This document shows positions 8,251 through 28,843 of a stretch of DNA of 32,000 nt, one piece after another. The notes under the pieces were generated by a model. The model ran no database searches, was not told the DNA's origin, and saw only the letters and a list, made by a program, of their open reading frames with translations. Position numbers and translations under genes: made by a program. The stretch lies in NCBI GenBank assembly GCA_003345555.1, contig PRDJ01000033.1, positions 1 to 32,000 on the forward strand, written 5' to 3'. The DNA is from Candidatus Thorarchaeota archaeon. GTDB taxonomy: Archaea; Asgardarchaeota; Thorarchaeia; Thorarchaeales; Thorarchaeaceae. Within the stretch, counting starts at the first letter, position 1, and every line of letters begins with the position of its first letter.

Positions 8251-8265
8251 CAGAAAGATTATATC
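8251..8265 (+). promoter_or_regulatory. Putative BRE-TATA promoter of the first hdrA-like gene
   Basis: CAGAAAGATTATATC about 50 nt upstream of ATG 8317, in the divergent SRAP/hdrA intergenic region. Confidence 0.55.
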
Positions 8266-8316
8266 GACTCTCAGGGTGTCGACCTCGACACAACCGTAGC
8301 TCGGAGATCTCTATTG

Positions 8317-11451: not shown

Positions 11452-11537
11452 ACCTGCCAGAAGCATCAGAGTCTCTGACAAATGTGCAAGACCAATGAAG
11501 CTGTGGCTGCCATCAATCAGCTCGGAGATGGGTTTCC

Positions 11538-12017: not shown

Positions 12018-12590
12018 ATGGTATCGGCTGATAGCATGCTGGCAGGCTGGATGGTTTTGAATGATTTGCTTGGTGACCTGAAGAGCCGAGGCGTGTTCAT
12101 ACCAGACCTCACCTATGCAGACCTGCGAAATAGCAAGATGGTCATTGAATATCTTCGGGCATTTGAGCGTGAGATTGCCTCTATCGATCAGCAAGACGTG
12201 GAGCTGAGGTCCGAAATGGAGACAAGGATGCTCCGTCTGAAGGAAACCTTGATGATTTGGGCCGAGCAAAATGGCGGTGAGGGAGTTCGGCGTACATGGG
12301 AAAGGCGCTTCAACGATGCAATCCAAGGGAAGGGTCAAAAGATTCCCCCTGAGCCTAAGACCCGGATTTCGGATCTCCCAAGAGAGAAGGACGTTGCTTT
12401 CTTTCGGATAAGGTTACCAGATGAGATTCCAGTGGAGATTGTCTCAGAACTGGCAGAGGATTGCCGTGTCCATATATCACTGGACGGTGACCGCCATCTA
12501 CAAGTAAGTGGCAAGAAGGAATGCGTCCGTGATGCGATGAAGCGGCTCGGTGAGATATTCTACGGGGAAGACCGGACAGTATCGAAGTAG
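12018..12590 (+). CDS. DUF2096-like conserved archaeal protein
   Basis: Recognised by eye from the pattern W-x-VL-x-DLL-x-DL-x-x-RG...DLR-x-x-K-x-x-I...W-x-x-R...LPR...F-x-RI-x-LP...E-x-x-E...V-x-G-x-KE-x-V-x-x-A-x-K. GGGGGT RBS upstream. Family assignment needs an HMM check. Confidence 0.7.
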   Translation: MVSADSMLAGWMVLNDLLGDLKSRGVFIPDLTYADLRNSKMVIEYLRAFEREIASIDQQDVELRSEMETRMLRLKETLMIWAEQNGGEGVRRTWERRFNDAIQGKGQKIPPEPKTRISDLPREKDVAFFRIRLPDEIPVEIVSELAEDCRVHISLDGDRHLQVSGKKECVRDAMKRLGEIFYGEDRTVSK

Positions 12591-12604: not shown

Positions 12605-13480
12605 CTACAATCCGAGAATGTCGGCTATCGGGTCGAGTGGCACCCTGTTCAGTCTGAGCCCGAGAGCGTCTACATCAATACCCATTGCGGCACCGAGCAC
12701 CTGTGTTACGAACAATGCAGGCAGCTCAAACGATTCCCCCTTGTCGCCCTTCATGCCAATGGCTTGGATATCGAACTGCGTGTGGCATGCTGGGCAGTTT
12801 GTCACAATGCAGTTAGCGCCAGCGTCCTTCGCTGAGATCATCTTCTCCTTTAGAATCCGTGATGCAACACTCTCACTCGCTATAAGCAATGGCGAACCAC
12901 AGCATCTGAGTTTCAAGCCCCAAGGTAGGCTCTTAGCCCCGGTCAGTTCGATTAGCTCATCGACTTTGCGTGGAAGCTCAGGGTCATCAAAACCAGCCAC
13001 TTTCGAAGGCCGGAGCAAATGACAGCCCGGGTGGAATGCTACAGATAGCCCATTCAGTGGTCGGACAATCTTACCCTTGATCTCATCCTTCAAATCGTAG
13101 AGGACCTCAACGAAATGTCGAATTGTAGCCTTGCCCGTGAATTGCAGTCCCTGAGAAGATAGGGCCTTGTTTGTAGCCTTTCGAGCAGCATCATTATTGT
13201 GAAGAACATGAGAGCAGTCCTTGAGAGAGCCGAAGCAGCCGTTGCACGGTGTGACTATATTGTGGCCGCGCTTTTCAGCAAGAGCGATGTTCCTTCCTGA
13301 AATTGCGAGCCAGCTGGGTTCATCGATTGACTTTAGAACAACCGTGCCGCAGCACGAAGCACCTTCAAAGTCCAAGAGCTCGACGTCGAGCTCTTTTGCG
13401 ACAGCACGCATAGATGCTTCATAGTAGTTGAATCTTGAGGGAATTGCGCAGCCCAGGAATACCTCATACGTTTGGGTCAT
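12605..13480 (-). CDS. hdrB: Heterodisulfide reductase subunit B (CCG-domain protein), divergent copy
   Basis: All ten Cys plus the His of the two CCG domains are present: FLGC, SCCG, PCNGC, PGCH, RCCG, NCPAC. ATG 13480 overlaps the hdrC stop (TGATG). Confidence 0.93.
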   Translation of the reverse strand: MTQTYEVFLGCAIPSRFNYYEASMRAVAKELDVELLDFEGASCCGTVVLKSIDEPSWLAISGRNIALAEKRGHNIVTPCNGCFGSLKDCSHVLHNNDAARKATNKALSSQGLQFTGKATIRHFVEVLYDLKDEIKGKIVRPLNGLSVAFHPGCHLLRPSKVAGFDDPELPRKVDELIELTGAKSLPWGLKLRCCGSPLLIASESVASRILKEKMISAKDAGANCIVTNCPACHTQFDIQAIGMKGDKGESFELPALFVTQVLGAAMGIDVDALGLRLNRVPLDPIADILGL

Positions 13481-13998
13481 CACTCACCCTCCTGCAATCT
13501 CATCAGACCCGTCTTGCCAAGCACCTTGCGGGTCTCGGCCACATCAAGATGCGGGACAGGAGGAAGAGCCAAGTCGTCGCGCTCCCAATCTGTCGGTTCG
13601 TAAAGCTTTCCATTATCGTACAGGGCCTTTCGTGATGTCACATAGCCCGGTGGTGTTATGCCCTTGCGAAATGCCATGTTCTTGAGGCCAAAGATTATGT
13701 CAGTTATCTCGATTCCCTGAGGACAACGCTGCTGGCATTGATAACACGTAGTGCAGAGCCAGACCATGTCCGTGTCAAGGACTTCCCTGAAACCGAACAA
13801 GAGCATCCTCATCAACTCGTGGACTTGGATGTTCACTTTGTCAGAGACAGGGCACCCTGCGCTGCACTTTGCGCACTGAAAACACGCGGTCAGGTCCTGC
13901 CCACCAATCAGCTTTGAGACCTCCTTCGTGAATTCAGCATCAAGTGCCTCGAACTTCTTGCCTTCGAAGGACTTCAGCTGACCCCAGTTCTCTGCCAT
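13480..13998 (-). CDS. hdrC: Heterodisulfide reductase subunit C (2x[4Fe-4S])
   Basis: CFQCAKCSAGCP and WLCTTCYQCQQRCPQ motifs; lies between hdrA and hdrB. Confidence 0.93.
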   Translation of the reverse strand: MAENWGQLKSFEGKKFEALDAEFTKEVSKLIGGQDLTACFQCAKCSAGCPVSDKVNIQVHELMRMLLFGFREVLDTDMVWLCTTCYQCQQRCPQGIEITDIIFGLKNMAFRKGITPPGYVTSRKALYDNGKLYEPTDWERDDLALPPVPHLDVAETRKVLGKTGLMRLQEGE

Positions 13999-14002
13999 TG
14001 AT

Positions 14003-17000
14003 TCATTTCCTCCTTGGTCTCAGAGGACTCGGTCCCAACTTGTCAGCGAGCTCAGAGAGCTTCCGCACTGTGTCAGCCCAGATTGAGCCCTCGCTTGCAC
14101 TAATGTGAGTGAACTGGAGCCGCTCGGTCTCAAGTCCCGCTTTCTCTAGTATCTTCTTCGCAATTGCGAATCTTCTCTCGAAGGTGATATTACCATCGAC
14201 ATAGTGACAGTCGCCTGTGTGACAACCGGATATCCAAACCATGTCTGCTCCGAGCCTGAATGCTTCAAGGATGTGAGTGACACTAATGCGTCCGGTGCAC
14301 ATGACACGTATGTCTCGAACGTTGGTCGGCTGTTGAAACCTCGAGACACCCGCATTATCGGCCCCGGCGTAGCTGCACCAGTTGCACACTATTGTTAGAA
14401 TGCGTGATTGGTTTGCGGGCATGTCTTCGAGCGCCGCACGAATCTGAGAGAGTATCTGATCGTCAGTGAAGTGCTTCATTGTGATAGCACCAGTGGGGCA
14501 TCCGGCGGCACACTTTCCACAGCCCGCACAGAGCACGGGATTCGATACAGCATAGTCGTGACCGCCTTGGCCCGGAACAACCTCTATTGCATTGTAGGCA
14601 CAATTGATTTCGCACGTGCCGCAGCCTACGCAGACCTCGGGATCCACAACAGAAACTATCGCCTCGGCCTTCCGAACACCCGTCACTAAAGGTACAAGTG
14701 CGCGAGCAGCCGCACCTCTTCCCTGTGCAATGGATTCATCGATTGACTTGGGTGCTGTTGCAGTCCCGGCCACATAGACACCATCTGTCTGGAAGTCCAC
14801 CGGTCTCAGCTTCGGGTGTGCTTCCATGAAAAACCCAGACATGTTCAGCGGGACCTTGAATAGCTCTGAGATTTGCTTGTTGGTCTCCCGCGGAACCATC
14901 GCTGTTGCTAACACAACGTGATCAACATCAAGCCCTAGCTTCGCTCCGAGTATCTGGTCAGTGACTTCTACCCTGAGGGGCCTGTTCTTCCCCTTCTTTA
15001 CCTCTGGAGGCGAGTCCTTGTCGAATCTGATGAAAACAACACCTTTCTTCCGAGCTTCGCGGTACCTGTCCTCTGCTGTGTAGGATACTCTCAGGTCCCT
15101 GTACAGATGGAATACCCGCGAATTGGGATACTTCTCGAGGAGCTCAAGAGTATGCTCAAGAGCAACAGTGCAGCAGATTCCCGAACACCAAGTTCGCGAC
15201 CCTTCAAGAGACTCATCTTGGCGGGAACCAGCACAGTGGATTACAGCGAAAGTCTCTCCATCTTGGAATGCGTCGTCTTGTGCGAGCCGCTGATTCAGCT
15301 CAAGCTCTGTAGTGACATCGGGGAACTTCTGGAGGCCGTAGAGGCCCTTCTCCTCCAGCTGGACTGCCCCCGTTGCAACGACGACAACCCCGACCTTCAG
15401 TTCCCGCTTCTGCTTCTTGCTTGTCATGACCGTTACTTCAAAATCACCAATCGATCCTTTGGCATCCGTAACCTCCGAGTTTAGCATTAGCTCGATGTTA
15501 GAGTTGCCCTTGACCATTCGTTCGTGTTGTCCCACAATGTCTAGGGCAGGTGTGAAATCGAAGTTGACCGTGTGCAGCTGGCTCAATAGGCCGCCGACCT
15601 TGTCTTCCCTCTCTACAAGATATGTCTTGAACCCCTTGTCAGCTATCAGTTCTGCAGCTGACATTCCGGCCACACCAGCTCCGATTACGAGAACCGCAGG
15701 CTCAACTTTCGTGGCTGCCTCTTCTTCAGGCTCGAGCAGTCTGGACTTGGCTACAGCCATTCGGACAAGATCCATGGCTTTCGCGGTGGCTTCATCTTTG
15801 GCACCTTGGTGTATCCATGAACAATGCTCACGTATGTTAGCCATTTCAAAAAGATACTTGTTGAGCCCAGCTTCTTCGGTTGTCGCTCTGAATAGGGGCT
15901 CGTGGGTTCTCGGTGTGCAGGAGGCTACAACAACACGATTGAGCTTGTGTTCCTTGATTGCATCCTTGATGACGACTTGAGCATCTGATGAACAGGAATA
16001 AAGCAGATTCTGAGCATGAACGACATTAGGCAGCGAGCCTGCATAGCGAGTAACTTCTGCAACGTCCACTGTTCCGGCAATATTGACACCACAAGAACAA
16101 ACAAAGACGCCGATGCGGGGTTCTCCTGTTGCGAGTTCGGTGATGGTCTGTGTCGCCGCCTCAAGCTCAGGCGCCTTGGGGATGACTATATCAAGCGCTG
16201 CCAGTGCGGCAGCAGCGCTTCCCTGAGCGACTGAGTCAGGAATATCCTTAGGGCCATTCACTGTCCCACACATGTGAATTCCCGGGACACCGGTCTGGAC
16301 ACTTTCAACACGACCGGCCATGCCCTCCAAGTAGCCGTAGCTATCAATCTGAACACCGAGCTTCTGAAACAGATCTTGATTCTCGTTATGGACCATGGCC
16401 GGGCATAGGATGACTAAGTCGTAGCGATCCTGTAGAATCTCACGTCCTTTCATATCACTATGCCTGACAAGCAGGTCTCTGCTATCGCGGTCTTCGATGA
16501 TTTCGCTGGGGAGACCCTTCACATAATTGATGCCATATTCCTTCTCGCCCCGCACGAGGAATTCCTCGAAGCCCTTACCAAAGGCACGCATGTCATTGTA
16601 CAGAATGTCAATGTGGACCTCGGGCATATGCTCCTTCGTTATGATTGCCTCTTTCGTGGCATATGTGCAACATATCCTTGAACAGTAAGGACAATGGTTC
16701 ACATCACGTGAACCCACACACTGAACGAACGCAATTCGATGAGGTTCTCGACCATCGGAGGGACGCATGATGACTCCCCCGGTGGGTCCGCTCGCAGAGA
16801 CCATTCTCTCATACTCAAGACTTGTGACAACATTCGGGTACCGTCCGTAGCCCAGTTCCGGCACGGTGGATGCGTCGAGAAGCCTGTAGCCAGTTGCAAC
16901 AATGATTGAGCCAGCATTGATCTCAACCGTCTCATCCGGGCGTTCAAAATCGATTGCTTGGGCCTTGCAGCCATTCGCACAGGTCATGCACTGAATGCAG

Positions 17001-17467
17001 TTCTCGATGTCGATAGTCGCAATGTTGGGTACAGCCTGTGGGAATGGGATGTAGGCTGCTTTTCTCATCTTTAGGCCAAGGTCGTACTCGTTCGGAACCT
17101 CGATTGGACACACTCTCTGGCAATCGCCACAGCCAGTACACTTGTTCGAATCCACACGGCGTGTATGCTTCAGGACCTTCACTGTGAAGTCGCCCTGATT
17201 ACCTGATACCTCTGTGACCTCAGAATAGGCCAGAATCGTGATATTGGGATTTCGTGAGCAATCGACCATCCATGGCCCCATGATGCACATCGAACAATCT
17301 AGGGTCGGGAACGTCTTGTCGAGCTGAGCCATGTGTCCACCGATGGATGGCTGCCTCTCGACCATGTACACCCTAACGCCCATTCCGGCTAGGTCTAATG
17401 CAGCACGGATACCAGCGATTCCCGCGCCTATGATAACTACAGGTCTTGTTGAGGTCTCTGCCATCAT
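14003..17467 (-). CDS. hdrA: Large heterodisulfide reductase subunit A with two FAD modules fused to a C-terminal MvhD ([2Fe-2S]) domain
   Basis: Module 1 is canonical (IGAGIAG, GGHMAQLDKTFPTLDCSMC, inserted ferredoxin, CVGSRD...CSRICC, GPKDIPDSVAQ). Internal HdrA N-terminal domain (RIGVFVCSCG...YSCS...ASCTP). Second FAD module (IGAGVAG), C-terminal ferredoxin (CVGCGTCEINC, CAGCGKCAAGCP). MvhD from about 14405 (CNWCSYAGAD, RVMCTGR, GCHTGDCHY). Confidence 0.95.
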   Translation of the reverse strand: MMAETSTRPVVIIGAGIAGIRAALDLAGMGVRVYMVERQPSIGGHMAQLDKTFPTLDCSMCIMGPWMVDCSRNPNITILAYSEVTEVSGNQGDFTVKVLKHTRRVDSNKCTGCGDCQRVCPIEVPNEYDLGLKMRKAAYIPFPQAVPNIATIDIENCIQCMTCANGCKAQAIDFERPDETVEINAGSIIVATGYRLLDASTVPELGYGRYPNVVTSLEYERMVSASGPTGGVIMRPSDGREPHRIAFVQCVGSRDVNHCPYCSRICCTYATKEAIITKEHMPEVHIDILYNDMRAFGKGFEEFLVRGEKEYGINYVKGLPSEIIEDRDSRDLLVRHSDMKGREILQDRYDLVILCPAMVHNENQDLFQKLGVQIDSYGYLEGMAGRVESVQTGVPGIHMCGTVNGPKDIPDSVAQGSAAAALAALDIVIPKAPELEAATQTITELATGEPRIGVFVCSCGVNIAGTVDVAEVTRYAGSLPNVVHAQNLLYSCSSDAQVVIKDAIKEHKLNRVVVASCTPRTHEPLFRATTEEAGLNKYLFEMANIREHCSWIHQGAKDEATAKAMDLVRMAVAKSRLLEPEEEAATKVEPAVLVIGAGVAGMSAAELIADKGFKTYLVEREDKVGGLLSQLHTVNFDFTPALDIVGQHERMVKGNSNIELMLNSEVTDAKGSIGDFEVTVMTSKKQKRELKVGVVVVATGAVQLEEKGLYGLQKFPDVTTELELNQRLAQDDAFQDGETFAVIHCAGSRQDESLEGSRTWCSGICCTVALEHTLELLEKYPNSRVFHLYRDLRVSYTAEDRYREARKKGVVFIRFDKDSPPEVKKGKNRPLRVEVTDQILGAKLGLDVDHVVLATAMVPRETNKQISELFKVPLNMSGFFMEAHPKLRPVDFQTDGVYVAGTATAPKSIDESIAQGRGAAARALVPLVTGVRKAEAIVSVVDPEVCVGCGTCEINCAYNAIEVVPGQGGHDYAVSNPVLCAGCGKCAAGCPTGAITMKHFTDDQILSQIRAALEDMPANQSRILTIVCNWCSYAGADNAGVSRFQQPTNVRDIRVMCTGRISVTHILEAFRLGADMVWISGCHTGDCHYVDGNITFERRFAIAKKILEKAGLETERLQFTHISASEGSIWADTVRKLSELADKLGPSPLRPRRK

Positions 17468-17509
17468 TTGTCCCTTTAGGGGTGATATGTAGCGGCCTCA
17501 TGGTTGGAC

Positions 17510-17525
17510 GATAAAACGTTTGTTC
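17510..17525 (-). promoter_or_regulatory. Putative BRE-TATA promoter of hdrA(mvhD)-hdrC-hdrB
   Basis: Minus strand reads GAACAAACGTTTTATC about 45 nt upstream of ATG 17467; purine-rich AAAGGGA just before the start. Confidence 0.45.
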
Positions 17526-17540
17526 TAGCGGAGATTCTTT

Positions 17541-18440
17541 TCACGTTGTGCCAAGACTCAGAATCATGTCTTTCAGATTCTTCACAATCCTGAGTGCATC
17601 ATCCCAGTCACGCTGCCAGAGGTTCCTGCCGAAAATCAAACCTGCAGCTCCTTCTTGTAAGCACACCCTTGCCTTGTGGAGGATTTCGTCATCATCAATC
17701 TTACCCCCGCCTGAGAAGAGCACGAGAGTCTTGCCAGCTGAATGTATCACCTTCCTCACGCGTTCATCATAGCTCAGGTTCAATGAGTCGTAGGGTTTCG
17801 GTTGTAGAGACCTTGTTTTTGGATCATCATTGGGAACGTTGATCTTGACTAGGTCTGCTCCAAGCTCACTTGCCACGCGAGCTGCGTAGTCGACTGCATA
17901 TAGAGAATCGCGTCCGCCCTTCGAATCTACCGCTGCTCCTCTTGGGTATGCCCACATGACGATTGGCATACCATAACGGTCAGCATCAGCTTTGACTTTC
18001 CTGAATTGGTTGAAATCTTCAACCTGCCTTGGACTACCCACAAAAAGAGTGTACCCCACAGCATCTGCACCGATTCTGACCGCGTCTTCAACCGAGGCCG
18101 TCATGGGTGAGACAGGGTAACCCTCGCTAGGAATGCTCGTCTTACCATTGAGCTTGAGGATAATCGGGACCTTGCCGGCATACTTCGATGCATACTTCTC
18201 GGCCAGACCCAAGTGAAGCGCAACTCCTGACAGACCGCCCTCAAGAGCGAGCCTGAACTGAAACGTGGGGTCCTCAGAGGGGGGATTCGGGAGGAAGTCT
18301 ATCGGACCGTGCTCGAGCCCTTGGTCAATTGGCATTATGAGCATATGCCCGTTGCCCGGACCGTGCTCATACATGAGTCGATGTAGCCTGATTCTCTTCC
18401 CGAGGCTGAGGTAGTCCATGTCGTCCAGCCAGTTCTTCAA
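17541..18440 (-). CDS. fba: Class IA (archaeal-type/DhnA family) fructose-1,6-bisphosphate aldolase
   Basis: DQGLEHGP-x-DF, ILKLNGKT, SVEDAV-x-x-GADAVGYT, WAYPRG (Trp/Tyr motif as in Thermoproteus FBA), Schiff-base Lys in GADLVKI, SGG and GRNLWQ. Start TTG 18440 or ATG 18419. Confidence 0.9.
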   Translation of the reverse strand: MKNWLDDMDYLSLGKRIRLHRLMYEHGPGNGHMLIMPIDQGLEHGPIDFLPNPPSEDPTFQFRLALEGGLSGVALHLGLAEKYASKYAGKVPIILKLNGKTSIPSEGYPVSPMTASVEDAVRIGADAVGYTLFVGSPRQVEDFNQFRKVKADADRYGMPIVMWAYPRGAAVDSKGGRDSLYAVDYAARVASELGADLVKINVPNDDPKTRSLQPKPYDSLNLSYDERVRKVIHSAGKTLVLFSGGGKIDDDEILHKARVCLQEGAAGLIFGRNLWQRDWDDALRIVKNLKDMILSLGTT

Positions 18441-18476
18441 AGCACGTAGACCTCGGTTTTACCAATGAAGCGGTCC

Positions 18477-18490
18477 TTCATAAACATTCT
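18477..18490 (-). promoter_or_regulatory. Putative BRE-TATA promoter of the aldolase gene
   Basis: Minus strand reads AGAATGTTTATGAA, overlapping the hdrB stop codon, about 40 nt upstream of the fba start. Confidence 0.5.
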
Positions 18491-19433
18491 AGGCCGTTGC
18501 CTTTGCCTTGGCCCTGAGGTTGAGCCGCTCCCAATTAGGCTCGGTCTTCCTCTGCGAATACTGTAGATGGTTGGCGAGCCCGAATTCATCCGGCTCATGG
18601 CCAAAAGCGAGTGCTAGCAGCTCAGATACGTGCATGATATCGAACTTGTACTCGACTCCGAAGAGTTTCTGGATCTCTACTTGGCCCGTGTCAAGCTGAA
18701 GCAAACAGAACGGGCACGGGGTCACAATAACATCGGCACCACCTGCAGCCGCAATGCTGTCGAATTTCTGCTTCGTGAAGTCGAGAGAAGTCTTGAGATC
18801 TGCAGTCCTTACCGCGCCACCGGCGCCACAGCAAATCAGCTCATCCTTGTAGTGGACGTACTTGGCACCGCTAGTTTCGCAGATTTCCCTGAATATGTGA
18901 GGCCGCTCGCTATCGTCTTTCTTCTTTACTAGTTTCGGTCTCATCCAGTGACATCCAGGATGAAGGGCCATTCTGACTCCATTCAGTGGGCGCGTGACAT
19001 GCTCCTTAACCTTCTGAGTACCAACAACGTCGTGGAGCACATCGAGGTAGTGTGTCACCTCGATTGTGCCTTTGAACTCACGCCCGATATCAGCTAGGTT
19101 GCGGTTCACGGCAGCCCTAAGCTCCTCGTCTTCCTTCAACTCATGGTTTGAGTCCCACAAGCTGGCGAAGCAACCGTTGCACCCAGTTGTAATGGGGTGG
19201 CCACCTTGCTCTGCAATAGTCAGATTTCGAGCAGCAATGGTAGCCCACGTGACTCTGTCAAATGAACCGAACACGCCCGGAGCAGGACAACAGCTCGCCC
19301 CAACCATGTCAAGCAAGTCTATACCTAAGTCGTTGAAGACGAGTTTCGTTGCTTTCTCGATGCTCGGATATCGATGCGGAATAATGCAGCCCAGAAAATG
19401 ATAGTATGCAGGTCGCTTCGACAAGCCGTTCAC
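18489..19433 (-). CDS. hdrB: Heterodisulfide reductase subunit B, methanogen-like copy
   Basis: FLGCIIPHRYPSIE, GASCCPAPGVFGSFD, GCNGC, PGCH, CCGAGGAVR, PCPFC. GTG start overlaps the hdrC stop (GTGA). Confidence 0.95.
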   Translation of the reverse strand: MNGLSKRPAYYHFLGCIIPHRYPSIEKATKLVFNDLGIDLLDMVGASCCPAPGVFGSFDRVTWATIAARNLTIAEQGGHPITTGCNGCFASLWDSNHELKEDEELRAAVNRNLADIGREFKGTIEVTHYLDVLHDVVGTQKVKEHVTRPLNGVRMALHPGCHWMRPKLVKKKDDSERPHIFREICETSGAKYVHYKDELICCGAGGAVRTADLKTSLDFTKQKFDSIAAAGGADVIVTPCPFCLLQLDTGQVEIQKLFGVEYKFDIMHVSELLALAFGHEPDEFGLANHLQYSQRKTEPNWERLNLRAKAKATA

Positions 19434-19999
19434 TTCTCCTTCTTTTCCGCAGCGGGTGGTTCCTCAGTATAACCAATCAGTTTGTCAAATCCGCTCTTCT
19501 TGGCTATCTTGCGAATCTCCTGCGCCACCTTCGGACTCGACGACCCATTTGGAGGCAATGGTTCGAGACCGGATTTCTTCCTCAGTTCGGACCACGTATC
19601 CTTGTCAAGAGGCACAGCATGTCCGGACTCCATCACTTTCTTTGCTGTGTCCTGATGTGACTTGAGCATGTGTCCCTCTGCGACGGCGACGTTTCTGATT
19701 GCCTTGATGACATCGGTTGGCTTCACATCTTGCGGACAACGATCCGTGCACATGTAGCAGGTGGTACAGTACCAAAGCTCAGGAGCGGTGATGACCTCGT
19801 TCTTCAGGCCAAGCAGAGCCTTCCTTATGATTCCTCTCACAAGATAGTTAGTGCGGGCTCCCGCGGGGCAAGATCCAGAGCAAGTGCCACATTGGTAGCA
19901 GCTTTGGATGTTTGGTCCGCCGGCCTTCTTGATCATTTCGATGAATTCAAGGTCCACCTCGTCAACGTCAACCGGGGGTCTTTCTTCAACAATTGTCAA
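19430..19999 (-). CDS. hdrC: Heterodisulfide reductase subunit C
   Basis: CYQCGTCSGSCP, WYCTTCYMCTDRCPQ, GHAVP. TTG at 19999, preceded by CAGGTG, is preferred over the track start at 20029. Confidence 0.93.
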   Translation of the reverse strand: MTIVEERPPVDVDEVDLEFIEMIKKAGGPNIQSCYQCGTCSGSCPAGARTNYLVRGIIRKALLGLKNEVITAPELWYCTTCYMCTDRCPQDVKPTDVIKAIRNVAVAEGHMLKSHQDTAKKVMESGHAVPLDKDTWSELRKKSGLEPLPPNGSSSPKVAQEIRKIAKKSGFDKLIGYTEEPPAAEKKEK

Positions 20000-20132
20000 G
20001 TTCGGGCACCTGAGCGTTCGGACCAGCAAATGGTTCGGCCTTTTATCCGTTGCTTCATGGCTACTGTTATTATGCGTTCGTTATGTGGCACAACGGAAAG
20101 GTTGAATCGAACGAGTGGAATAGAGGATCGGA

Positions 20133-21212
20133 ATGTTCTGCCCAAACCATTGTGACGAGAAGCGGCTTGTTTCATGCTCTGTAGGGTACTGCCCAGAGTG
20201 CCTTGCCGCTGATAGCCGATTGCTGGAAAGAGTGTTGAACGTGCACAGAGCCAGCAGAAACCACGCTGGCCTGATTCAGGGTGTCCCAGCCACCGGTCCA
20301 CATGTATGTCCGGAATGCGCAAATCATTGCAGGCTAAGTGATGGCCAGACGGGATTCTGTAATGGCAGAAAGGCGACGGCGTCGGGCATAATCGAGAGAT
20401 ACCCGGGCAGGGCGGTCGTCTACTGGTACTTCGATCCATTGCCTACAAATTGCGTGGGGGACTGGGCCTGCTCGCTCACTCGTCCGGAGAAGAAGTCATG
20501 CCTCCCTTACCTGAAGAACCTGGCCGTGTTCTACGGGTCTTGCAGCTCTGACTGTCTCTTCTGCCAAAACATAGGCTATCGTGACATGATGGCAAGAGGA
20601 CGACCTCTGATGACTCCCGAAGAACTTGCATCAGTGGCAGACGACAGGACAGCGTGCGTCTGCTATTTCGGGGGAGATCCATCGTGCAATGCGAAGCATT
20701 CAGTCGAAACGGCCAAGCTGGTTAGACAGGAACGGGACCTGAAGGTCTGTTATGAGACCAACGGCCTCATCTCCAGCAAGTGGCTACAGCGGATTGCCGA
20801 TGTGGTATGGGAAAGCAGAGGACCAATCAAGTTCGACCTTAAGGCGTTCACCCCGGAACTCTATACGGCATTAACGGGAGTGTCTAATGCATCTGTTCTC
20901 AGGAATTTCAGAACGCTGGCCCAACGAGGAAAGAACCGTGAAGAGGAATTCCTCATTGCCAGCATATTGCTTGTGCCAGGGTATGTCGGAGTGTCAGAGG
21001 TCAGAAAGCTGGCAGACTTCATCGCTGCCTGTGACGCAACCATTCCGACTGCGCTCCTAGGTTTCTTTCCACATCACATGATGAGTGACTTGCCTTGCAC
21101 TAGCATAGCACACGCGAATGCCGCGGTTAAGGCAGCAAGGGATGCGGGGCTAATGAACGTTAGAGTGGGAAATACTGGACTACTCTCTTCAGTAGAGTAC
21201 ACGGTCAGCTAG
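20133..21212 (+). CDS. Radical SAM protein (PflA/AmmeMemoRadiSam-like clan) with Cys-rich N-terminal region
   Basis: CSSDCLFCQN (CxxxCxxC), YFGGDP, YETNG, DLKA motifs; N-terminal CPNHC...CPEC and CPECANHC...GFC metal-binding clusters. Confidence 0.9.
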   Translation: MFCPNHCDEKRLVSCSVGYCPECLAADSRLLERVLNVHRASRNHAGLIQGVPATGPHVCPECANHCRLSDGQTGFCNGRKATASGIIERYPGRAVVYWYFDPLPTNCVGDWACSLTRPEKKSCLPYLKNLAVFYGSCSSDCLFCQNIGYRDMMARGRPLMTPEELASVADDRTACVCYFGGDPSCNAKHSVETAKLVRQERDLKVCYETNGLISSKWLQRIADVVWESRGPIKFDLKAFTPELYTALTGVSNASVLRNFRTLAQRGKNREEEFLIASILLVPGYVGVSEVRKLADFIAACDATIPTALLGFFPHHMMSDLPCTSIAHANAAVKAARDAGLMNVRVGNTGLLSSVEYTVS

Positions 21213-21438
21213 AGGCAGCTAGGGACATCAGATGATTGCTGCCCTCACGAGCTCATGTGAACAAGCGTCCATCCTCGGGCTCTCGTGGCCAATGCCCCGA
21301 GAAAGGGGAAATGTATAAAGGACCGCAGGACAAGGCTCTAAGATTGCAAGTGTGGCTCGTGTACAAGCCTCGGGTGAGGTATCAAGAGTACACGAAGACA
21401 AACTGGCGTCCTTTCCCACCACAGGAGGTAACGAAGCT

Positions 21439-21891
21439 ATGGTCGCGAGTCCGATTACGACATATCTCTACGTGATAAGCCTGATTCTGGTCTACGGTTC
21501 CCTGGGAATTGCCTTTGCGGTCGGTGCTTCCATGACAATATTCGTCATCGACGGCGTTCTCTGCATACTGTCGCTTGCTCTGCTTCAGGGGCTCCGTTGC
21601 GCTATCACTGGCAAGACCGTAACCGTGGCACCTGGCCCCATGGCCGTTACACGATATCAGCAGCAATCCGATGGGGTTCATGCTGTAACTGAAAGTAGGT
21701 GGAGTGCTGGAGGGACCTACGGTGCACGATACTACGGTCTCCTGTTTGGGTGTCTGGGCCTGCTCTTCGGGCTCATGATTGGATTTGGTGGGGAGATGTA
21801 CGAGCAAGATACCTTTCCAGCCGTGACTCTCTTAGCCAGTACCATCTTCGCTATCATCGGGGCGATAGCGTACAAACCCACTAGCAGCTGA
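21439..21891 (+). CDS. Hypothetical membrane protein, about 4 TM helices (150 aa)
   Basis: GGAGGT RBS 9 nt upstream of ATG 21439; two hydrophobic hairpins flanking a polar loop; TATA-like GAAATGTATAAAG at about 21308. Confidence 0.72.
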   Translation: MVASPITTYLYVISLILVYGSLGIAFAVGASMTIFVIDGVLCILSLALLQGLRCAITGKTVTVAPGPMAVTRYQQQSDGVHAVTESRWSAGGTYGARYYGLLFGCLGLLFGLMIGFGGEMYEQDTFPAVTLLASTIFAIIGAIAYKPTSS

Positions 21892-21904
21892 ATTGCACCG
21901 TATA

Positions 21905-22236
21905 GTAGTCACTCTTGACCTTGAGGCATTCGCTCAAGGAGTCTGCATCCATCCCGGCTGTCTACTAGATTGCGAGTCGCGACGAACATACCGCTTGTGC
22001 CGGGATATGTTTGAGTGTCAGAGGTTAGAAGACGGACAGATTTCATTGCCAGCTGCGACCCCACTATTCCGACAGCGCTCCTAGGCTTCATCCCGCATCA
22101 TATGACGAGTGGCCTGCCTTGCACTGCCAGAGCACATACAGATGCAACTGTCAAGGCGACGCAAAAGGCAGGGCTAACGAACATAAGAGATAGAAACAAG
22201 GGTTTTCCGTCCAGCAGGGAGTACAACCTACAGTGA
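21905..22236 (+). pseudogene. Degenerate duplicate of the 3' end of the upstream radical SAM gene
   Basis: Reads VTLDLEAF (intact gene: IKFDLKAF), then a 58-nt shorter spacer with frameshift, then NIPLVPGYV*VSEVRRRTDFIASCDPTIPTALLGFIPHHMTSGLPCT... (intact: SILLVPGYVGVSEVRKLADFIAACDATIPTALLGFFPHHMMSDLPCT...). GGA>TGA nonsense at 22012-22014. Confidence 0.9.
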
Positions 22237-22267
22237 TGACAAAGAGTGCACAATGTACAAGTACTCT

Positions 22268-22280
22268 GAATGCGTTTATG
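22268..22280 (+). promoter_or_regulatory. Putative BRE-TATA promoter of the DUF3795 gene
   Basis: GAATGCGTTTATG about 42 nt upstream of ATG 22322. Confidence 0.45.
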
Positions 22281-22321
22281 CCAAGCTCTCAGCCACTGTC
22301 AGTATCATGAGTGAGTGAAAG

Positions 22322-23329
22322 ATGGAAGACCTGATTTCCAAATGTGGGATGTGCTGCAGTCGGTGCCCGGCCTACAGAGCAAACATAAGAACAAAAGCCG
22401 ACAAGATTCGAACAAGTGATGGATGGTACAAGTACCTGGGCTTTCGCTTTCCTTCACGGCTAATCATCTGCGATGGGTGCCAGATGCCGGATGATCAGAG
22501 CCCCTTGCGCATAAGACGAGGATGCACGGTACGAAACTGTGCAATATCAAATGGTGTCGAGACCTGCGCGCATTGTTCGGAGTATCCGTGTGAAGCAGTA
22601 AAGACACTGAGCTACGTTGATAGGCAATGGGCCGAAACTAGATTGGGCGATAGAATCAAAGAGGAGGACTATCTAACCTTCATAGAACCATACGAAGGTA
22701 TCAAGCATCTGGACAAGATTCGAGCCAGTCTTGGCCCCGAAGATATCTTGAAGGCAGAAATTTCGTTGGCCGAATCCAAAATATCGAACTTTCCTGAGCA
22801 CCTGCCGCTTCCAAAGGAGGACCTAATCGCTTTACAAGCCCTCCACAGTATCTTGGCTTCAGTGAAATCCATTGGTGGCGGTACCTATGCTATGCAGGTG
22901 ACCTTGGAGAACAGGAGGAGGTACCTCCTGAGGCTATTGTGGGTCTTTGGATGCTATGGTGAAATGGAAGATAAGAACGGTTCGTACCTTGTGGTTACTA
23001 GTGAGGCCTACTCTACTAAGATGCGCCAAGCTCCGGCTTTCTCACTCTTCTCAAGGATGTTAGGTCACTTTGATGTCCTGAAAGAGTTCGGAATACGTTG
23101 CCAACATGTGCAATTGACAGAAGAGAAGTATGGGAAGAAAGGATGGCTAACCCCGACAGGAGCGTTGAGGAGAAATGGGTGGGCTATCAAGATGAGCTTC
23201 GAGGAGCGTGTGGGAGGGGCGTCAGCGTTGAAAGCTCTCAGAACCTACGCGACGAGACTGAGCGAGAAGCAGGGAGAAAAAGGATACGCCCTCTTCTCAC
23301 AGGTGGACATGAGACCATTGGAAGAGTAG
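22322..23329 (+). CDS. DUF3795-domain Cys-rich protein with long C-terminal extension
   Basis: N-terminal CGMCCSRCPAY...CDGC...CTVRNCA-x-x-x-GVETCAHCSEYPC pattern of DUF3795; the last ~200 aa are unrecognised. Confidence 0.8.
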   Translation: MEDLISKCGMCCSRCPAYRANIRTKADKIRTSDGWYKYLGFRFPSRLIICDGCQMPDDQSPLRIRRGCTVRNCAISNGVETCAHCSEYPCEAVKTLSYVDRQWAETRLGDRIKEEDYLTFIEPYEGIKHLDKIRASLGPEDILKAEISLAESKISNFPEHLPLPKEDLIALQALHSILASVKSIGGGTYAMQVTLENRRRYLLRLLWVFGCYGEMEDKNGSYLVVTSEAYSTKMRQAPAFSLFSRMLGHFDVLKEFGIRCQHVQLTEEKYGKKGWLTPTGALRRNGWAIKMSFEERVGGASALKALRTYATRLSEKQGEKGYALFSQVDMRPLEE

Positions 23330-23401
23330 AGAATCACATGCGACCATGATTGACTGTCCATCGCACTGCACCAACCAAGCTCTACTTCGCCTCCCTTATG
23401 T

Positions 23402-23414
23402 GAATGCTTATATC
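23402..23414 (+). promoter_or_regulatory. Putative BRE-TATA promoter of the third hdrC-hdrB pair
   Basis: GAATGCTTATATC about 50 nt upstream of ATG 23462; closely matches the element at 8251. Confidence 0.55.
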
Positions 23415-23461
23415 GTGTCACACGACGAAGCGGCTACTGCTCCAAGTTCAGAGGTCCTACA

Positions 23462-24013
23462 ATGGGAGAGATCATTCGGGAAACCATTTCAGCTGGCGAT
23501 ATGGACCCAACATTCATAGAGAAGATCGAAAAGGCTGGTGCAGATAGGATACGAACTTGCCTATCCTGTGGGACCTGCTCAAGTGTTTGCCCCTCTGGTC
23601 GTCGTACAGCTTTCAGAACGCGTGAGCTTATCCGTAAAGCCTTGCTCGGCCTCAGAGAAGACGTTCTGAGTTCTCCAGACCTTTGGTTATGTGCCACATG
23701 TCTTACTTGCTTGGAGCGCTGTCCGAGACAAATCAAGATCACAGATGCAATCATAATCATGAGAAACATGGCTGTCAAGGAAGGATTCATGCTTCCTCAG
23801 CATCGAAAGTCCGCTCAGAAGCTGCTTCAGACAGGACATGCAGTACCATTGGATGATGCAAACCGGGACATGCGAAGGGAACTGGGTATCCCAGAGATAC
23901 CTCCCACAGTGCACTCAAGCGAGGAAGCACTCGCACAGGTCAAGGAGATAATGAGACTCACGGGGTTCGATACCCTTGTAGAAGGAGAAGGAACAGGGGC
24001 CAAGCAGGAATGA
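23462..24013 (+). CDS. hdrC: Heterodisulfide reductase subunit C
   Basis: CLSCGTCSSVCPSGR, WLCATCLTCLERCPR, TGHAVP. Confidence 0.93.
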   Translation: MGEIIRETISAGDMDPTFIEKIEKAGADRIRTCLSCGTCSSVCPSGRRTAFRTRELIRKALLGLREDVLSSPDLWLCATCLTCLERCPRQIKITDAIIIMRNMAVKEGFMLPQHRKSAQKLLQTGHAVPLDDANRDMRRELGIPEIPPTVHSSEEALAQVKEIMRLTGFDTLVEGEGTGAKQE

Positions 24014-24903
24014 CAGACCCTCAAACTTACTCATTGTTCCTCGGATGTGTGATGCCAAATCGCTATCCTAATGTCGAGAAAAGCATCAGAGTTGTACTTC
24101 CAGCACTCGGTATAGAGCTGGAGGAGCTGGAGGGAGCAAGTTGTTGCCCTGCACCGGGCGTCATAAGATCATTTAGCGAGCGGACATGGCTCGCGCTCGC
24201 ATCTCGCAACCTTGCATTGGCGGAAAGAGCGGGTCACGATATCATCACGGGATGCAATGGCTGCTATGGAACCTTCAAAGAAGCGCTCAATATAGTGCAC
24301 GAGAAACCCGACCGGCTCAAGGATGTCCAGCAGATCCTCAAGAGCGTTGGACTGAAGTACGAGGCAGGTGTCGACGCAAAACACCTCATCGAGGTTATCT
24401 ACAGCATTGGGATTGACCCTCTGCGAAAGAAGATTACGCGCCCCCTCACAGGCTTGAAGGTCGGCGTACACTATGGATGTCATCTTCTGAGGCCAAGCAA
24501 GCTGAGACCTTGGCACCAAATTCAGAAGCAGACATTCCTCGATGAGCTCGTCGAAGTGACGGGAGCCGAGAGCGTCAAGTACAAGGACAAGTTCCTCTGC
24601 TGTGGCGCCGGAGGTGGAGTACGTGGCTCCAATGTCCCTGTCAGCATAGACATTGCCCGAGAGAAACTTGATAATATGATGGAAGCAGGAGCTGATTGCA
24701 TAGTCGATGTTTGTTCGTTCTGCCATCTTCAGTTCGAGGTTTGTCAGGCTGAACTCAACAAGGAACTAGGGGAGAACAAGTATCACCTACCCGTGATATA
24801 TTACACCCAGCTCTTGGGATTGTCGATGGGGTTTGAACCTCAGGATCTCGGGCTTCACAAACATGTTGTCAGCACTCAGGCGCTTCTGGATCGCTTCCTT
24901 TGA
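24010..24903 (+). CDS. hdrB: Heterodisulfide reductase subunit B, methanogen-like copy
   Basis: FLGCVMPNRYPNVE, GASCCPAPG, GCNGC, YGCH, CCGAGGGVR, VCSFC. ATGA overlap with hdrC. Confidence 0.95.
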   Translation: MTDPQTYSLFLGCVMPNRYPNVEKSIRVVLPALGIELEELEGASCCPAPGVIRSFSERTWLALASRNLALAERAGHDIITGCNGCYGTFKEALNIVHEKPDRLKDVQQILKSVGLKYEAGVDAKHLIEVIYSIGIDPLRKKITRPLTGLKVGVHYGCHLLRPSKLRPWHQIQKQTFLDELVEVTGAESVKYKDKFLCCGAGGGVRGSNVPVSIDIAREKLDNMMEAGADCIVDVCSFCHLQFEVCQAELNKELGENKYHLPVIYYTQLLGLSMGFEPQDLGLHKHVVSTQALLDRFL

Positions 24904-25828: not shown

Positions 25829-25887
25829 GAGACCCGACCTGGCCGCACGAAGTCCTCTTTTGCTCCAGTTAGTTCTATTGTTAGAAC

Positions 25888-26352
25888 TCAATCCTCTTGC
25901 TCCGGAAATGGTTGTTCCCTCCATATCCTAAAAGATTCGTACCAAAGGACAACGCAGACTGACACCAGAAGACCAACCAGAACGGCTGAGTACCATTCAA
26001 TGTAGGAAAGCAGCATGGTGGTCAGTGCAGCTGTGACTGATGTGTAGAAGGTGGCATAGAAAAGAAACCGAGGAACCATCAGTCGACCTTTACCAATGAA
26101 CATTCTCAGCACGCCAACCCTGACGTCGCGCCTCACTGTGTACTGCCCATGGACATCCTTGTCAACAAGACCCAGCTGCCTCAGATGTTCTAGGTGATGC
26201 ATTGAGAGAGAAGGACTGGAAAGCGCAGCCCCTCTCTGAATCTCTCTGGCGGTCATTGGCACGGGATGCCGAAGCATATACCAGTATACACGAAGAGTCC
26301 TGCCCTTTAGCGACTTGACCAGCTCTTCCTCGTCAGGCTCCTCGTCGGGCAT
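25888..26352 (-). CDS. Winged helix-turn-helix transcriptional regulator (ArsR-like) with two C-terminal TM helices
   Basis: LKGRTLRVYWYML...MTAREIQRGAALSSPSLSMHHLEHLRQLGLVDK wHTH, followed by hydrophobic FLFYATFYTSVTAALTTMLL and WYSAVLVGLLVSVCVVLWYE. Confidence 0.85.
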   Translation of the reverse strand: MPDEEPDEEELVKSLKGRTLRVYWYMLRHPVPMTAREIQRGAALSSPSLSMHHLEHLRQLGLVDKDVHGQYTVRRDVRVGVLRMFIGKGRLMVPRFLFYATFYTSVTAALTTMLLSYIEWYSAVLVGLLVSVCVVLWYESFRIWREQPFPEQED

Positions 26353-28838: not shown

Positions 28839-28843
28839 TTTGC

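Follow-up and report, generated by a model that had tools for sequence, protein, structure and literature searches.

The closest described relatives of the genes analyzed here come from several soluble Hdr systems. The MvhADG-HdrABC complex of hydrogenotrophic methanogens is represented by the structures 5ODC/5ODR and 8RVU (Wagner et al. 2017, as cited in PMC6019823). In HdrA2B2C2 of Methanosarcina acetivorans, a single HdrA module is fused to MvhD, F420H2 is the donor for bifurcation, and CoM-S-S-CoB is the substrate (PMC6019823). Type II fused double HdrA proteins of ANME and methanogens have been described as HdrA3/HdrA4 (PMC9012536) and as type II, "A3+MVH" (PMC12054007); according to PMC9012536, the HdrA of Moorella thermoacetica is also a fused double HdrA, working in an HdrCBA-MvhD-MetVF methylene-tetrahydrofolate reductase. 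The sHdr system of Hyphomicrobium denitrificans, an organism without CoM/CoB, has several HdrCB-like pairs per locus, and the lipoyl carrier LbpA is essential for it (PMC6067878). A lipoyl-carrier idea has already been published for Culexarchaeia (PMC9723716), and the published reading for other Asgard archaea is an H2-dependent Mvh-Hdr with the heterodisulfide unidentified (PMC11291895). The role of soluble Hdr in archaea and bacteria without coenzyme M or B is a recognized open question, and it bears on ferredoxin, hydrogen and thiol redox balance in Asgard archaea, the closest known relatives of eukaryotes.

We analyzed a stretch of 32,000 nucleotides from a Thorarchaeota genome (the window), which probably represents the core of a soluble-Hdr gene hub of four promoter-bearing units, conserved through one Thorarchaeota family (Table 1). 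The parts are of known types, and their arrangement is family-specific. Unit 1 would consist of hdrA0, encoding a single-chain double HdrA with no MvhD, followed by the DUF2096 gene; unit 2, hdrA1-hdrC1-hdrB1, would be a self-contained operon in which an HdrA-MvhD fusion accompanies a non-canonical HdrBC, and hdrC2-hdrB2 and hdrC3-hdrB3 would form units 3 and 4.

Table 1. Features of the hub and its surroundings (positions in the window).
Feature	Position	Strand	Remark
promoter-like TTATATCG	8259..8266	+	55 nt upstream of hdrA0
hdrA0	8314..11451	+	1045-aa double (type II) HdrA without MvhD
DUF2096 protein gene	12018..12590	+	
hdrC1-hdrB1 pair	13998-12605	-	Pfam and NCBIfam
hdrB1	12605..13483	-	non-canonical pocket (CCG-TVV, CCGSP--LL); under TIGR03288 cut-off
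hdrC1	13480..13998	-	C-terminal part diverged; under TIGR03290 cut-off
hdrA1	14003..17467	-	1154-aa double HdrA fused to MvhD
promoter-like TTTTATCG	17509..17516	-	upstream of hdrA1
DeoC/LacD-family aldolase	17541..18440	-	
hdrC2-hdrB2 pair	20029-18489	-	Pfam and NCBIfam
hdrB2	18489..19433	-	canonical-clade HdrB, long branch; above TIGR03288 cut-off
hdrC2	19430..20029	-	above TIGR03290 cut-off
PflA-like radical SAM (rSAM) gene	20133..21212	+	
further material between rSAM and hdrC3	21352..23329	+	absent there in most relatives
promoter-like TTATATCG	23408..23415	+	54 nt upstream of hdrC3
hdrC3-hdrB3 pair	23462-24903	+	Pfam and NCBIfam
hdrC3	23462..24013	+	canonical HdrC
hdrB3	24010..24903	+	canonical HdrB
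HTH regulator (154 aa) and orf329	24935..26352	-	conserved neighbours; Hdr link not apparent
four-subunit 2-oxoacid:ferredoxin oxidoreductase (OFOR; delta, alpha, beta, gamma)	26506..29401	+	

An earlier note on this DNA had described three intact hdrC-hdrB pairs, and Pfam and NCBIfam models identified all three, each as an HdrC (two-[4Fe-4S] ferredoxin) with an HdrB (two CCG domains). The ten CCG cysteines that the note saw are present at 12, 44, 45, 80, 83/154, 194, 195, 230, 233 in HdrB1, at 16, 48, 49, 85, 88/161, 201, 202, 240, 243 in HdrB2 and at 13, 45, 46, 82, 85/157, 197, 198, 235, 238 in HdrB3, and all three HdrBs have the His after the sixth cluster cysteine. The eight cluster cysteines of HdrC are found in HdrC1, HdrC2 and HdrC3 alike, and the HdrB motifs read exactly as quoted in the note (SCCPAPG and CCGAGG-x-VR for HdrB2/HdrB3; SCCGTVV and CCGSPLL for HdrB1). 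Against the equivalog model for CoB-CoM heterodisulfide reductase subunit B (TIGR03288, cut-off 345 bits), HdrB2 and HdrB3 scored 377 and 380 and HdrB1 266; for HdrC (TIGR03290, cut-off 160 bits), HdrC2 and HdrC3 reached 190 and 201, and HdrC1 scored 96, aligning to model positions 2-97 only. The solved methanogen HdrB (5odc_B) was matched by all three HdrBs (HdrB3 at 6e-100, HdrB1 at 7e-69), and HdrC3 matched Methanothermobacter HdrC over its full length (1e-57).

The source genome is an MAG of 82 contigs with 3.4% contamination, and the hdrB3 match in the sister species G003 is broken by two frame changes, which would suit an assembly artefact from mixed strains or redundant copies in decay. 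However, the three HdrBs are only 37-40% identical to each other, dozens of MAGs obtained independently, as well as two closed chromosomes, repeat the three-pair layout, the cofactor ligands are all intact, and dN/dS against the sister species is 0.036-0.096. These observations effectively refute an artefact or decaying copies, a reading that now has next to no probability, and uphold the earlier view that the copies are clearly diverged. The hub genes are intact, conserved and under purifying selection.

By comparing the HdrBs with the CoM/CoB contacts of the methanogen protein (Arg14, Gly46, Gly198, Arg201 and Arg240 in 5ODR numbering; PMC13261682), we found two pocket classes among the three. 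HdrB2, HdrB3 and all their orthologues keep Arg14, Gly46, Gly198 and Arg201, and HdrB2 and HdrB3 also keep the proton-path residues His154 and Glu/Asp87 of methanogen HdrB; HdrC2B2 and HdrC3B3 further resemble MvhADG-HdrABC in subunit sizes and in all cluster ligands. In HdrB1 and all 11 orthologues compared, Arg14 is the sole contact kept; the substrate pocket of HdrB1 differs from that of HdrB2 and HdrB3, in support of the divergence noted earlier for the hdrA-linked HdrB. Arg240 was discarded as a diagnostic CoB contact, for Methanothermobacter HdrB itself has Val there. The four contacts are also present in many non-methanogens, and canonical HdrB of Bathyarchaeia, Hadarchaeota and Thermoplasmata keeps them. 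The HdrB2/HdrB3 motifs that had been called methanogen-like are a trait of the entire canonical clade, these three groups included, and therefore do not single out a methanogen-type substrate. This canonical pocket would also fit a small anionic disulfide like CoM-S-S-CoB from a different synthesis route.

In the HdrB tree, HdrB2 and HdrB3 fall separately inside the canonical clade (support 99/96), and HdrB1 is sister to another HdrB of the same genome, on contig C50 (support 99/94). HdrC2B2 and HdrC3B3 separated long ago within the canonical HdrBC clade, HdrB1 belongs to a large non-canonical class, and the three pairs are old paralogues. A homologue search with HdrB1 returned Thorarchaeota orthologues only. 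Its pocket cannot be called unusual, as the shortened second loop is common to 116 of 126 near representatives.

We aligned the halves of the two hub HdrAs to the canonical HdrA of the genome and mapped their cysteines and GxGxxG motifs. Both HdrA0 and HdrA1 contain two thioredoxin-reductase-type FAD modules per chain, with complementary N-domain and Cys197; in HdrA0, half 1 has the Cys194/197 equivalents and an inserted ferredoxin domain, and half 2 the N-terminal Fe-S domain and the C-terminal ferredoxin domain. As in HdrA3/HdrA4 and "A3+MVH," one module has lost the N-terminal Fe-S domain and the other Cys197, and HdrA1 carries MvhD at its C-terminus. However, the order is reversed relative to the described HdrA3/4, since here module 1 has Cys197 without the N-domain and module 2 the N-domain without Cys197, and no FdhB or molybdopterin partner adjoins; one of the 28 published classes may already show this order. 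HdrA1 scored 1171 with NF040770 (HdrA2; cut-off 1100 bits) and HdrA0 872, below it. Like HdrA2 of M. acetivorans, HdrA1 is fused to MvhD and passes the HdrA2 model, and in both systems hdrCB can be apart from hdrA, but HdrA1 is double.

By analogy with solved structures, any HdrC would be expected to dock on any HdrA. Because the HdrC-feeding cluster is kept in both halves, a double HdrA could dock two different HdrBC modules at once. It is a long shot, in our estimate, that the double HdrA forms an asymmetric pseudo-dimer of this kind (e.g., HdrA0 with C2B2 and C3B3) and couples two thiol/disulfide couples to ferredoxin. If it did, one couple might be a small-molecule disulfide and the other a carrier protein with a lipoyl group; we know of no Hdr described as coupling two different thiol/disulfide couples.

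The three pairs occur together in about fifty related Thorarchaeota species. HdrB1 orthologues, 72-88% identical, are present in 22 of 24 family genomes, and hdrB3, hdrB2 and hdrB1 lie within 9-17 kb in the HdrB1-bearing genomes of the family; hdrA0 orthologues in the family are 73-95% identical. We counted neighbors within 6 kb of hdrC3-hdrB3 in the 52 Thorarchaeota species loci carrying it, two of them on complete chromosomes, and found hdrC2-hdrB2 in 41/52, the OFOR operon, a conserved hub neighbor, in 41/52, and the rSAM gene in 38/52, where it stands between hdrC2, which is divergent from it, and hdrC3. The conserved position of the OFOR operon is the one new point in favor of the earlier suggestion that the Hdr system may run in reverse or serve as a sink for ferredoxin from this oxidoreductase. 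The hdrA1-hdrC1-hdrB1 unit behaves as a separable module, because two genomes without it (G011 and G017) keep hdrA0, C2B2 and C3B3. The DUF2096 gene, which begins 14-20 nt past hdrA0 in relatives, remains with hdrA0 where hdrA1C1B1 is missing. Within a single family, some of this synteny may stem from common descent and not from function.

Upstream sequences point to separate units, as a conserved promoter-like element precedes each of them. TTWTATCG occurs three times in the 32 kb, always on the right strand and 42-55 nt upstream of hdrA0, hdrA1 and hdrC3. A YTTATAHH element precedes the hdrC3 orthologues in 45/49 species, related elements are kept before most hdrA1 and hdrA0 orthologues, with a conserved AAACRTTTTATC upstream of hdrA1 in relatives, and before hdrC2 stands a separate element of the GATTTAAGG type, kept in 33/45 orthologues. 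Separate transcription of the pairs, as proposed in the earlier note, is supported by these motifs, which also define the putative operon boundaries; however, pairs 1 and 2 share the co-directional string hdrC2-hdrB2-deoC-hdrA1-hdrC1-hdrB1, where gaps of just 48 nt (hdrB2-deoC) and 73 nt (deoC-hdrA1) make read-through from pair 2 into pair 1 possible in the source genome.

Ordinary methanogen paralogy had been raised as an explanation that Mcr and CoM/CoB synthesis genes would reveal. None of 61 family genomes gave a match for McrA or ComA, and no ComD was found in the source genome (93% complete), whereas control genomes did give matches. The hub is therefore not methanogen paralogy; unlike hydrogenotrophic methanogens, the host is a non-methanogen without Mcr and known CoM synthesis genes, CoB synthesis having no specific marker. 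The claim that no hydrogenase or Fdh partner lies in the window was borne out, with no mvhA/G, fdh, flx or mcr among its ORFs, and the variable stretches between modules of inspected relatives contain no mvh or fdh genes either. However, the claim does not extend to the genome, where mvhDGA lies on contig C24 and a complete hdrCB-hdrA-hdrA-mvhDGA cluster on C36; a molybdopterin enzyme and an FrhB-like gene are each present once, and metVF lies within metV-metF-mtrH-mtrA-mtrH on C31. The proposed system of two HdrA by three HdrBC likewise leaves out another two hdrCB pairs and another six hdrA genes that lie outside the window.

Given these loci, C2B2 and/or C3B3 might serve the canonical HdrA on contig C57 (653 aa) and mvhDGA on C24, as an ordinary dispersed Mvh-Hdr. 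The genes are scattered in this way in Methanothermobacter, with hdrA, hdrCB and mvh at separate loci, and the source genome does hold a canonical HdrA and an mvhD-mvhG-mvhA set that are both orphans. Both canonical pairs exceed the TIGR03288 and TIGR03290 cut-offs, HdrB3 and HdrC3 match methanogen subunits at the E values given above, and the arrangement agrees with the reading published for other Asgard archaea (PMC11291895). Yet four genomes that keep the hub with both canonical pairs (G005, G008, G016 and G020) gave no MvhA with the query used, and an orthologue of the C57-type HdrA was not found in 6/30 family genomes, which have other full-length HdrA paralogues; these absences weaken the two as sole partners. 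The hub also differs from MvhADG-HdrABC in having no canonical hdrA or mvh adjoining, its neighboring HdrAs being fused double forms, and a dispersed Mvh-Hdr leaves the constant adjacency of both pairs to two double hdrA genes unexplained. We consider it possible but somewhat improbable. For unit 2, the combination of a double HdrA, MvhD and one HdrCB recalls the Moorella system, the HdrA of which is likewise a fused double form (PMC9012536), and unit 2 could act as the Hdr part of a methylene-tetrahydrofolate (or H4MPT) reductase, its MetVF being encoded on C31. An archaeal metagenome contig has hdrA (1152 aa, with MvhD)-hdrC (172 aa)-hdrB (293 aa)-metV-metF in the order of unit 2. Its HdrA is collinear with HdrA1 over the entire length (48% identity), and its HdrB shares 40% identity with HdrB1; MetV and MetF of the source genome are 40% and 39% identical to the proteins of that contig. 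However, metVF is on another contig here and never adjoins the hub in the loci examined; MetV was not found in seven family genomes with unit 2 (G005, G007, G008, G010, G016, G020 and G023), and G011 has MetV without unit 2. Because unit 2 and MetV do not co-vary, MetVF is ruled out as an obligatory partner and general explanation, and we think such a role distinctly unlikely.

By analogy with LbpA of sHdr, it is also conceivable that HdrB, at least where the pocket is of the HdrB1 type, acts on the lipoyl disulfide of a dedicated GcvH-like carrier. Of the nearest HdrB1 relatives outside Thorarchaeota, one sits in lplA-gcvH-like-hdrC-hdrB-mvhD and another in gcvH-hdrCB-hdrCB-hdrA-mvhD-HTH-giant hdrA-mvhD, but two other contexts showed no carrier, and the wider HdrB1 clade has members linked to GcvH, MetVF, Mvh or CODH. 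Besides true GcvH, the source genome encodes another GcvH paralogue (C73:32047-32472), of a type found in 31/31 family genomes, in which the lipoyl Lys is kept. Identity to the Hdr-linked carrier is 48% for this paralogue and 31% for true GcvH. The genome also has a second LplA (C1:61677-62834), 42% identical to the Hdr-linked ligase. The hub thus resembles sHdr-LbpA in its several HdrCB pairs, in a host without known CoM synthesis genes, and in the presence of carrier and second ligase in the genome. However, both are unlinked to the hub, the carrier gene being never in or near it, and more obvious partners of the C73 carrier are its neighbors, two glcD-like genes and one hdrD-like gene; the hub HdrAs are giant bifurcation-type proteins with MvhD, not short sHdrA, and DsrC was not found in the source genome. 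A lipoyl substrate seems unlikely to us.

[quoted passage not shown] More tentatively, HdrA1 may pair with C1B1, and the canonical pairs may serve HdrA0 and/or the unlinked canonical HdrA on C57. Reducing power might come from ferredoxin through the adjoining OFOR, from H2 through the Mvh encoded elsewhere where present, or from another partner docking on MvhD; the disulfide would be other than CoM-S-S-CoB, and an HdrB1-type pocket may accept the lipoyl group carried by a GcvH-like protein. With two canonical and one non-canonical HdrBC beside two fused HdrAs, the hub offers a family-wide test set in genomes where Mcr and CoM synthesis genes are consistently not found, and in some of which Mvh is not found either. 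Its value is that of a defined biochemical target rather than a new principle.

The position of the DeoC/LacD aldolase is shared with the closest relatives alone (G003 and OWC3), which puts it outside the conserved hub. The material between rSAM and hdrC3 contains orf179, a decayed copy of the rSAM 3' end (21987-22196) and a 335-aa DUF3795 protein, and orf179 precedes rSAM in OWC3 and one other MAG. Most relatives lack the aldolase, orf179 and the DUF3795 protein at these places, and we rejected them as hub components. An Rfam scan of the 32-kb window gave no match. The true start of hdrC2 is probably some codons downstream of the called position, because a conserved GGAT(T/A)(T/A)AAGGC lies only ~10-25 nt upstream of the called start. 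The orf329 product evolves fast and gives weak Ig-like leads only.

Annotation of the window (contig C33 of a MAG of 2.28 Mb, 93% complete) with Pfam and NCBIfam bore out the three intact hdrC-hdrB pairs described in an earlier note, and the observation is robust: the HdrB motifs cited there match the sequences exactly, in all three HdrB proteins the ten CCG cysteines are in place and the sixth is followed by the His, all three HdrC proteins carry the eight cluster cysteines, and the layout is family-wide. Genes for hydrogenase, formate dehydrogenase, Flx and Mcr were not found in the 32-kb window.

Annotated genes of the hdr region in the window (Pfam and NCBIfam)
Feature	Position	Strand
hdrA0	8314-11451	+
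DUF2096 gene	12018-12590	+
hdrB1	12605-13483	-
hdrC1	13480-13998	-
hdrA1 fused to mvhD	14003-17467	-
DeoC/LacD aldolase	17541-18440	-
hdrB2	18489-19433	-
hdrC2	19430-20029	-
PflA-like radical SAM gene	20133-21212	+
orf179 and DUF3795 protein	between radical SAM gene and hdrC3	
hdrC3	23462-24013	+
hdrB3	24010-24903	+
HTH regulator with orf329		-
Four-subunit 2-oxoacid:ferredoxin oxidoreductase (OFOR)	26506-29401	+

The locus census comprised 52 Thorarchaeota loci with hdrC3-hdrB3 (GTDB species representatives, two complete chromosomes among them). Within 6 kb of this pair lay hdrC2-hdrB2 at 41 of the 52 loci, the radical SAM gene at 38, the HTH gene at 43 and the OFOR alpha subunit gene at 41, and the loci without these neighbors are mostly truncated by contig ends. 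The conserved order of this set, the hub, is (hdrA0, DUF2096), (hdrB1, hdrC1, hdrA1), a variable stretch, (hdrB2, hdrC2), (radical SAM), (hdrC3, hdrB3), (orf329, HTH), (OFOR); the inter-module stretches hold unrelated cargo differing by genome, and the aldolase gene stands between hdrA1 and hdrB2 in the closest relatives only. Of 24 family genomes, 22 have an HdrB1 orthologue (72 to 88% identical), with hdrB3, hdrB2 and hdrB1 spanning 9 to 17 kb. Pairwise identity among HdrB1, HdrB2 and HdrB3 is 37 to 40%. In the maximum-likelihood tree, HdrB1 groups as sister with the C50-encoded HdrB, a fourth copy from this genome (support 99/94), while HdrB2 and HdrB3 are placed separately within the canonical HdrB clade (support 99/96), which also includes Bathyarchaeia, Hadarchaeota, Nezhaarchaeales, Methanofastidiosia, Methanomicrobia and Thermoplasmata. 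The dN/dS values of all Hdr genes against the sister species are 0.036 to 0.096, similar to that of the OFOR (0.034). The three HdrB proteins are neither artefacts nor recent duplicates.

Several local variations accompany this order. The interval that holds orf179 and the DUF3795 gene is empty in most relatives or contains the radical SAM gene alone; because the latter directly precedes hdrC3 in most of them, orf179 and the DUF3795 gene resemble an insertion accompanied by partial duplication. A decayed 210-nt direct copy (74% identical) of the radical SAM 3' end (20963-21172) lies after orf179, at 21987-22196. The gap between hdrA0 and the DUF2096 gene (11452-12017) is about 570 nt, against 14 to 20 nt in relatives, sister species included, and holds short ORFs only, such as a hydrophobic minus-strand ORF of 60 aa (11562-11744). 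The next gene after hdrA0 is the DUF2096 gene in 12/12 family loci with hdrA0 (loci L044-L058), including two genomes without hdrA1-hdrC1-hdrB1, and its protein is a candidate accessory of HdrA0 rather than an hdrB companion. In the sister species (G003), the hdrB3 orthologue (L050:5611-6503) is split into three pieces in different frames, 93 to 98% identical, which points either to a decaying gene or to faulty assembly, and the radical SAM gene is absent from its place in the hub.

In the enzyme of M. thermolithotrophicus, Gly46 and Gly198 touch the CoM sulfonate through their backbone, Arg201 contacts the CoB carboxylate, and Arg14 and Arg240 contact the CoB phosphate (2026 structure-activity study, PMC13261682); the proton path runs via His154 and Glu87 (PMC13518236). 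Arg240 was rejected as a diagnostic contact because the Methanothermobacter enzyme has Val at this position. In HdrB2, HdrB3 and every one of their orthologues, Arg14, CCPAPG, CCGAGGxVR, His154 and Glu/Asp87 are retained. HdrB1 and its orthologues (11/11) keep Arg14 and His154 but read CCG-TV, with one residue fewer, and CCGSP--LL, with two fewer and no Arg. At least two pocket types coexist, as the earlier note had it. Since HdrB proteins from several groups of non-methanogenic archaea have an equally intact canonical pocket, and the shortened second loop recurs in 116 of the 126 nearest relatives of HdrB1 (50%-identity representatives), both pocket types are ordinary for their own clades. 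It is the pairs without an adjacent hdrA that have the two canonical pockets, and the HdrB of the Mvh-linked cluster on contig C36 has a non-canonical pocket.

The pairs are not a case of ordinary methanogen paralogy, which the earlier note had named as refuting its reading: McrA and ComA were found in 0/61 family genomes, and ComD (sulfopyruvate decarboxylase) and DsrC were not found in the 93% complete genome under study, with control methanogens matched in each search.

HdrA0 and HdrA1 are single-chain doubles. Their first halves lack the N-terminal Fe-S domain and carry the Cys194/Cys197 equivalents and an inserted ferredoxin domain; their second halves have the N-terminal domain and a C-terminal ferredoxin domain, without Cys197 or the inserted domain. 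Both halves keep GxGxxG and the Cx..CxxxCC cluster, which leads to HdrC in solved complexes, and HdrA1 has MvhD added. Fused and tandem HdrAs with such complementarity are known from ANME archaea and Moorella (PMC9012536) and are classed as type II, one class of which bears MvhD and reaches 1182 aa (PMC12054007); compared with the description of HdrA3/4 (PMC9012536), the one description used here, the module order of HdrA0 and HdrA1 is reversed.

The earlier note had proposed a two-by-three mix-and-match system, with no hydrogenase or Fdh partner in the window. The absence of partners holds within the window but not genome-wide, because mvh genes (on contigs C36 and C24), one molybdopterin oxidoreductase, one FrhB-like gene and metVF lie elsewhere in the genome. 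The scheme therefore needs widening to five hdrC-hdrB pairs (three in the window, one each on C50 and C36), eight hdrA genes (the two fused doubles, one on C57, two on C50 and three on C36) and several candidate donors; nine longer HdrD-like CCG proteins are also encoded. The C57 hdrA is canonical (653 aa) and stands alone, and the C36 genes comprise two like those on C50 and a variant of 916 aa. The hdrA pairs on C50 and C36 are unfused counterparts of the two halves of the fused HdrAs: Cys194/197 and the inserted ferredoxin domain are in the first gene, and the second has the N-terminal domain and the C-terminal ferredoxin domain, followed by MvhD, fused or separate. The C36 order is hdrC-hdrB-hdrA-hdrA-mvhD-mvhG-mvhA, and C24 has mvhD-mvhG-mvhA without hdr. 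The C50 cluster (G000:C50:37653-46037, L041) reads hdrC-hdrB-hdrA-hdrA-760-aa Fe-S/HTH protein-acyl-CoA dehydrogenase, with a half-1 type HdrA of 420 aa and a half-2 type plus MvhD of 725 aa; it is an unfused paralogue of hdrA1-hdrC1-hdrB1 adjoining a beta-oxidation-type enzyme.

Three copies of TTWTATCG lie in the 32 kb, at 8259, 17516 and 23408, all on the coding strand and 42 to 55 nt upstream of hdrA0, hdrA1 and hdrC3, respectively. Orthologous hdrA0 genes have TTATATCG about 57 nt upstream, hdrA1 orthologues have AAACRTTTTATC, and 45 of 49 species have YTTATAHH before hdrC3, mostly between -43 and -61, within the short gap (typically 84 to 93 nt) 3' of the radical SAM gene. A distinct GATTTAAGG-type element precedes hdrC2 in 33/45. 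By sequence, these elements fit BRE/TATA promoters of archaea in which leaders are short, and they support four putative transcription units, separately promoted family-wide. With gaps of just 48 nt (hdrB2-aldolase) and 73 nt (aldolase-hdrA1) on one strand, read-through from hdrB2 via the aldolase gene into hdrA1 is possible in the genome under study. A longer element, TTGACAATGGATTTAAGGC, is common to relatives upstream of hdrC2 and reads GCAACGGATAAAAGGC in the window (about 20040-20055); lying in the hdrC2/radical SAM divergent region, it may represent a bidirectional TATA plus a site for a regulator.

All parts of the hub are of known kinds; specific here is a family-wide arrangement in which two fused HdrAs are surrounded by three HdrBC, two of them canonical and one non-canonical. 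Its mechanism is predicted by homology to known Hdr, and pairings, electron-flow direction and disulfide substrate are given as candidates only. Two genomes (G011, G017) have lost hdrA1-hdrC1-hdrB1 as a block and keep hdrA0, DUF2096 and both canonical pairs, so this unit is self-contained and the canonical pairs are independent of it. Because C57-type HdrA orthologues occur in 24 of 30 family genomes, and four genomes with no match to the MvhA query (G005, G008, G016, G020) keep the whole hub, the hub is the family's most constant Hdr equipment, independent of Mvh. As the OFOR operon is its constant neighbor, the common redox partner is, by association, most plausibly ferredoxin. Convergent to that operon, a BcrAD/HgdC-type activase and a 2-hydroxyacyl-CoA-dehydratase D-component gene (29412-31435) are a further low-potential ferredoxin consumer adjoining the hub.

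Gene contexts elsewhere offer substrate or partner leads. An archaeal metagenome contig reads hdrA-hdrC-hdrB-metV-metF, its 1152-aa HdrA with MvhD being 48% identical and collinear to HdrA1 and its HdrB 40% identical to HdrB1; the MetV and MetF of our genome, which has a metV-metF-mtrH-mtrA-mtrH cluster, are 40% and 39% identical to its proteins, and MetV showed no co-variation with the hdrA1 unit across the family. Two other near relatives of HdrB1 lie in lplA-gcvH-like-hdrC-hdrB-mvhD and gcvH-hdrCB-hdrCB-hdrA-mvhD-HTH-giant hdrA-mvhD contexts. A GcvH-borne disulfide has been proposed as Hdr substrate in Culexarchaeia (PMC9723716), paralleled by the sHdr-LbpA system (PMC6067878). The genome encodes a second GcvH paralogue that retains the lipoyl Lys. 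Its identity to the Hdr-linked carrier is 48%, against 31% for the true GcvH, which adjoins gcvT; its gene has an hdrD-like and two glcD-like genes beside it and is present in 31/31 family genomes, never near the hub. A second LplA (G000:C1:61677-62834) is 42% identical to the Hdr-linked ligase. Because GcvH-, MetVF-, Mvh- and CODH-linked members are mixed in the wider HdrB1 clade, context elsewhere cannot fix the partner here. On contig C31 (797-5129, L148) of this genome, in which McrA was not found, a MetVF-type reductase is directly joined to methyltransferase subunits, and on contig C73 (26794-32472, L141) this GcvH-like lipoyl carrier, distinct from the glycine-cleavage protein and matched by the second lipoate ligase, is convergent to a glcD-like/unknown/hdrD-like (CCG)/glcD-like set.
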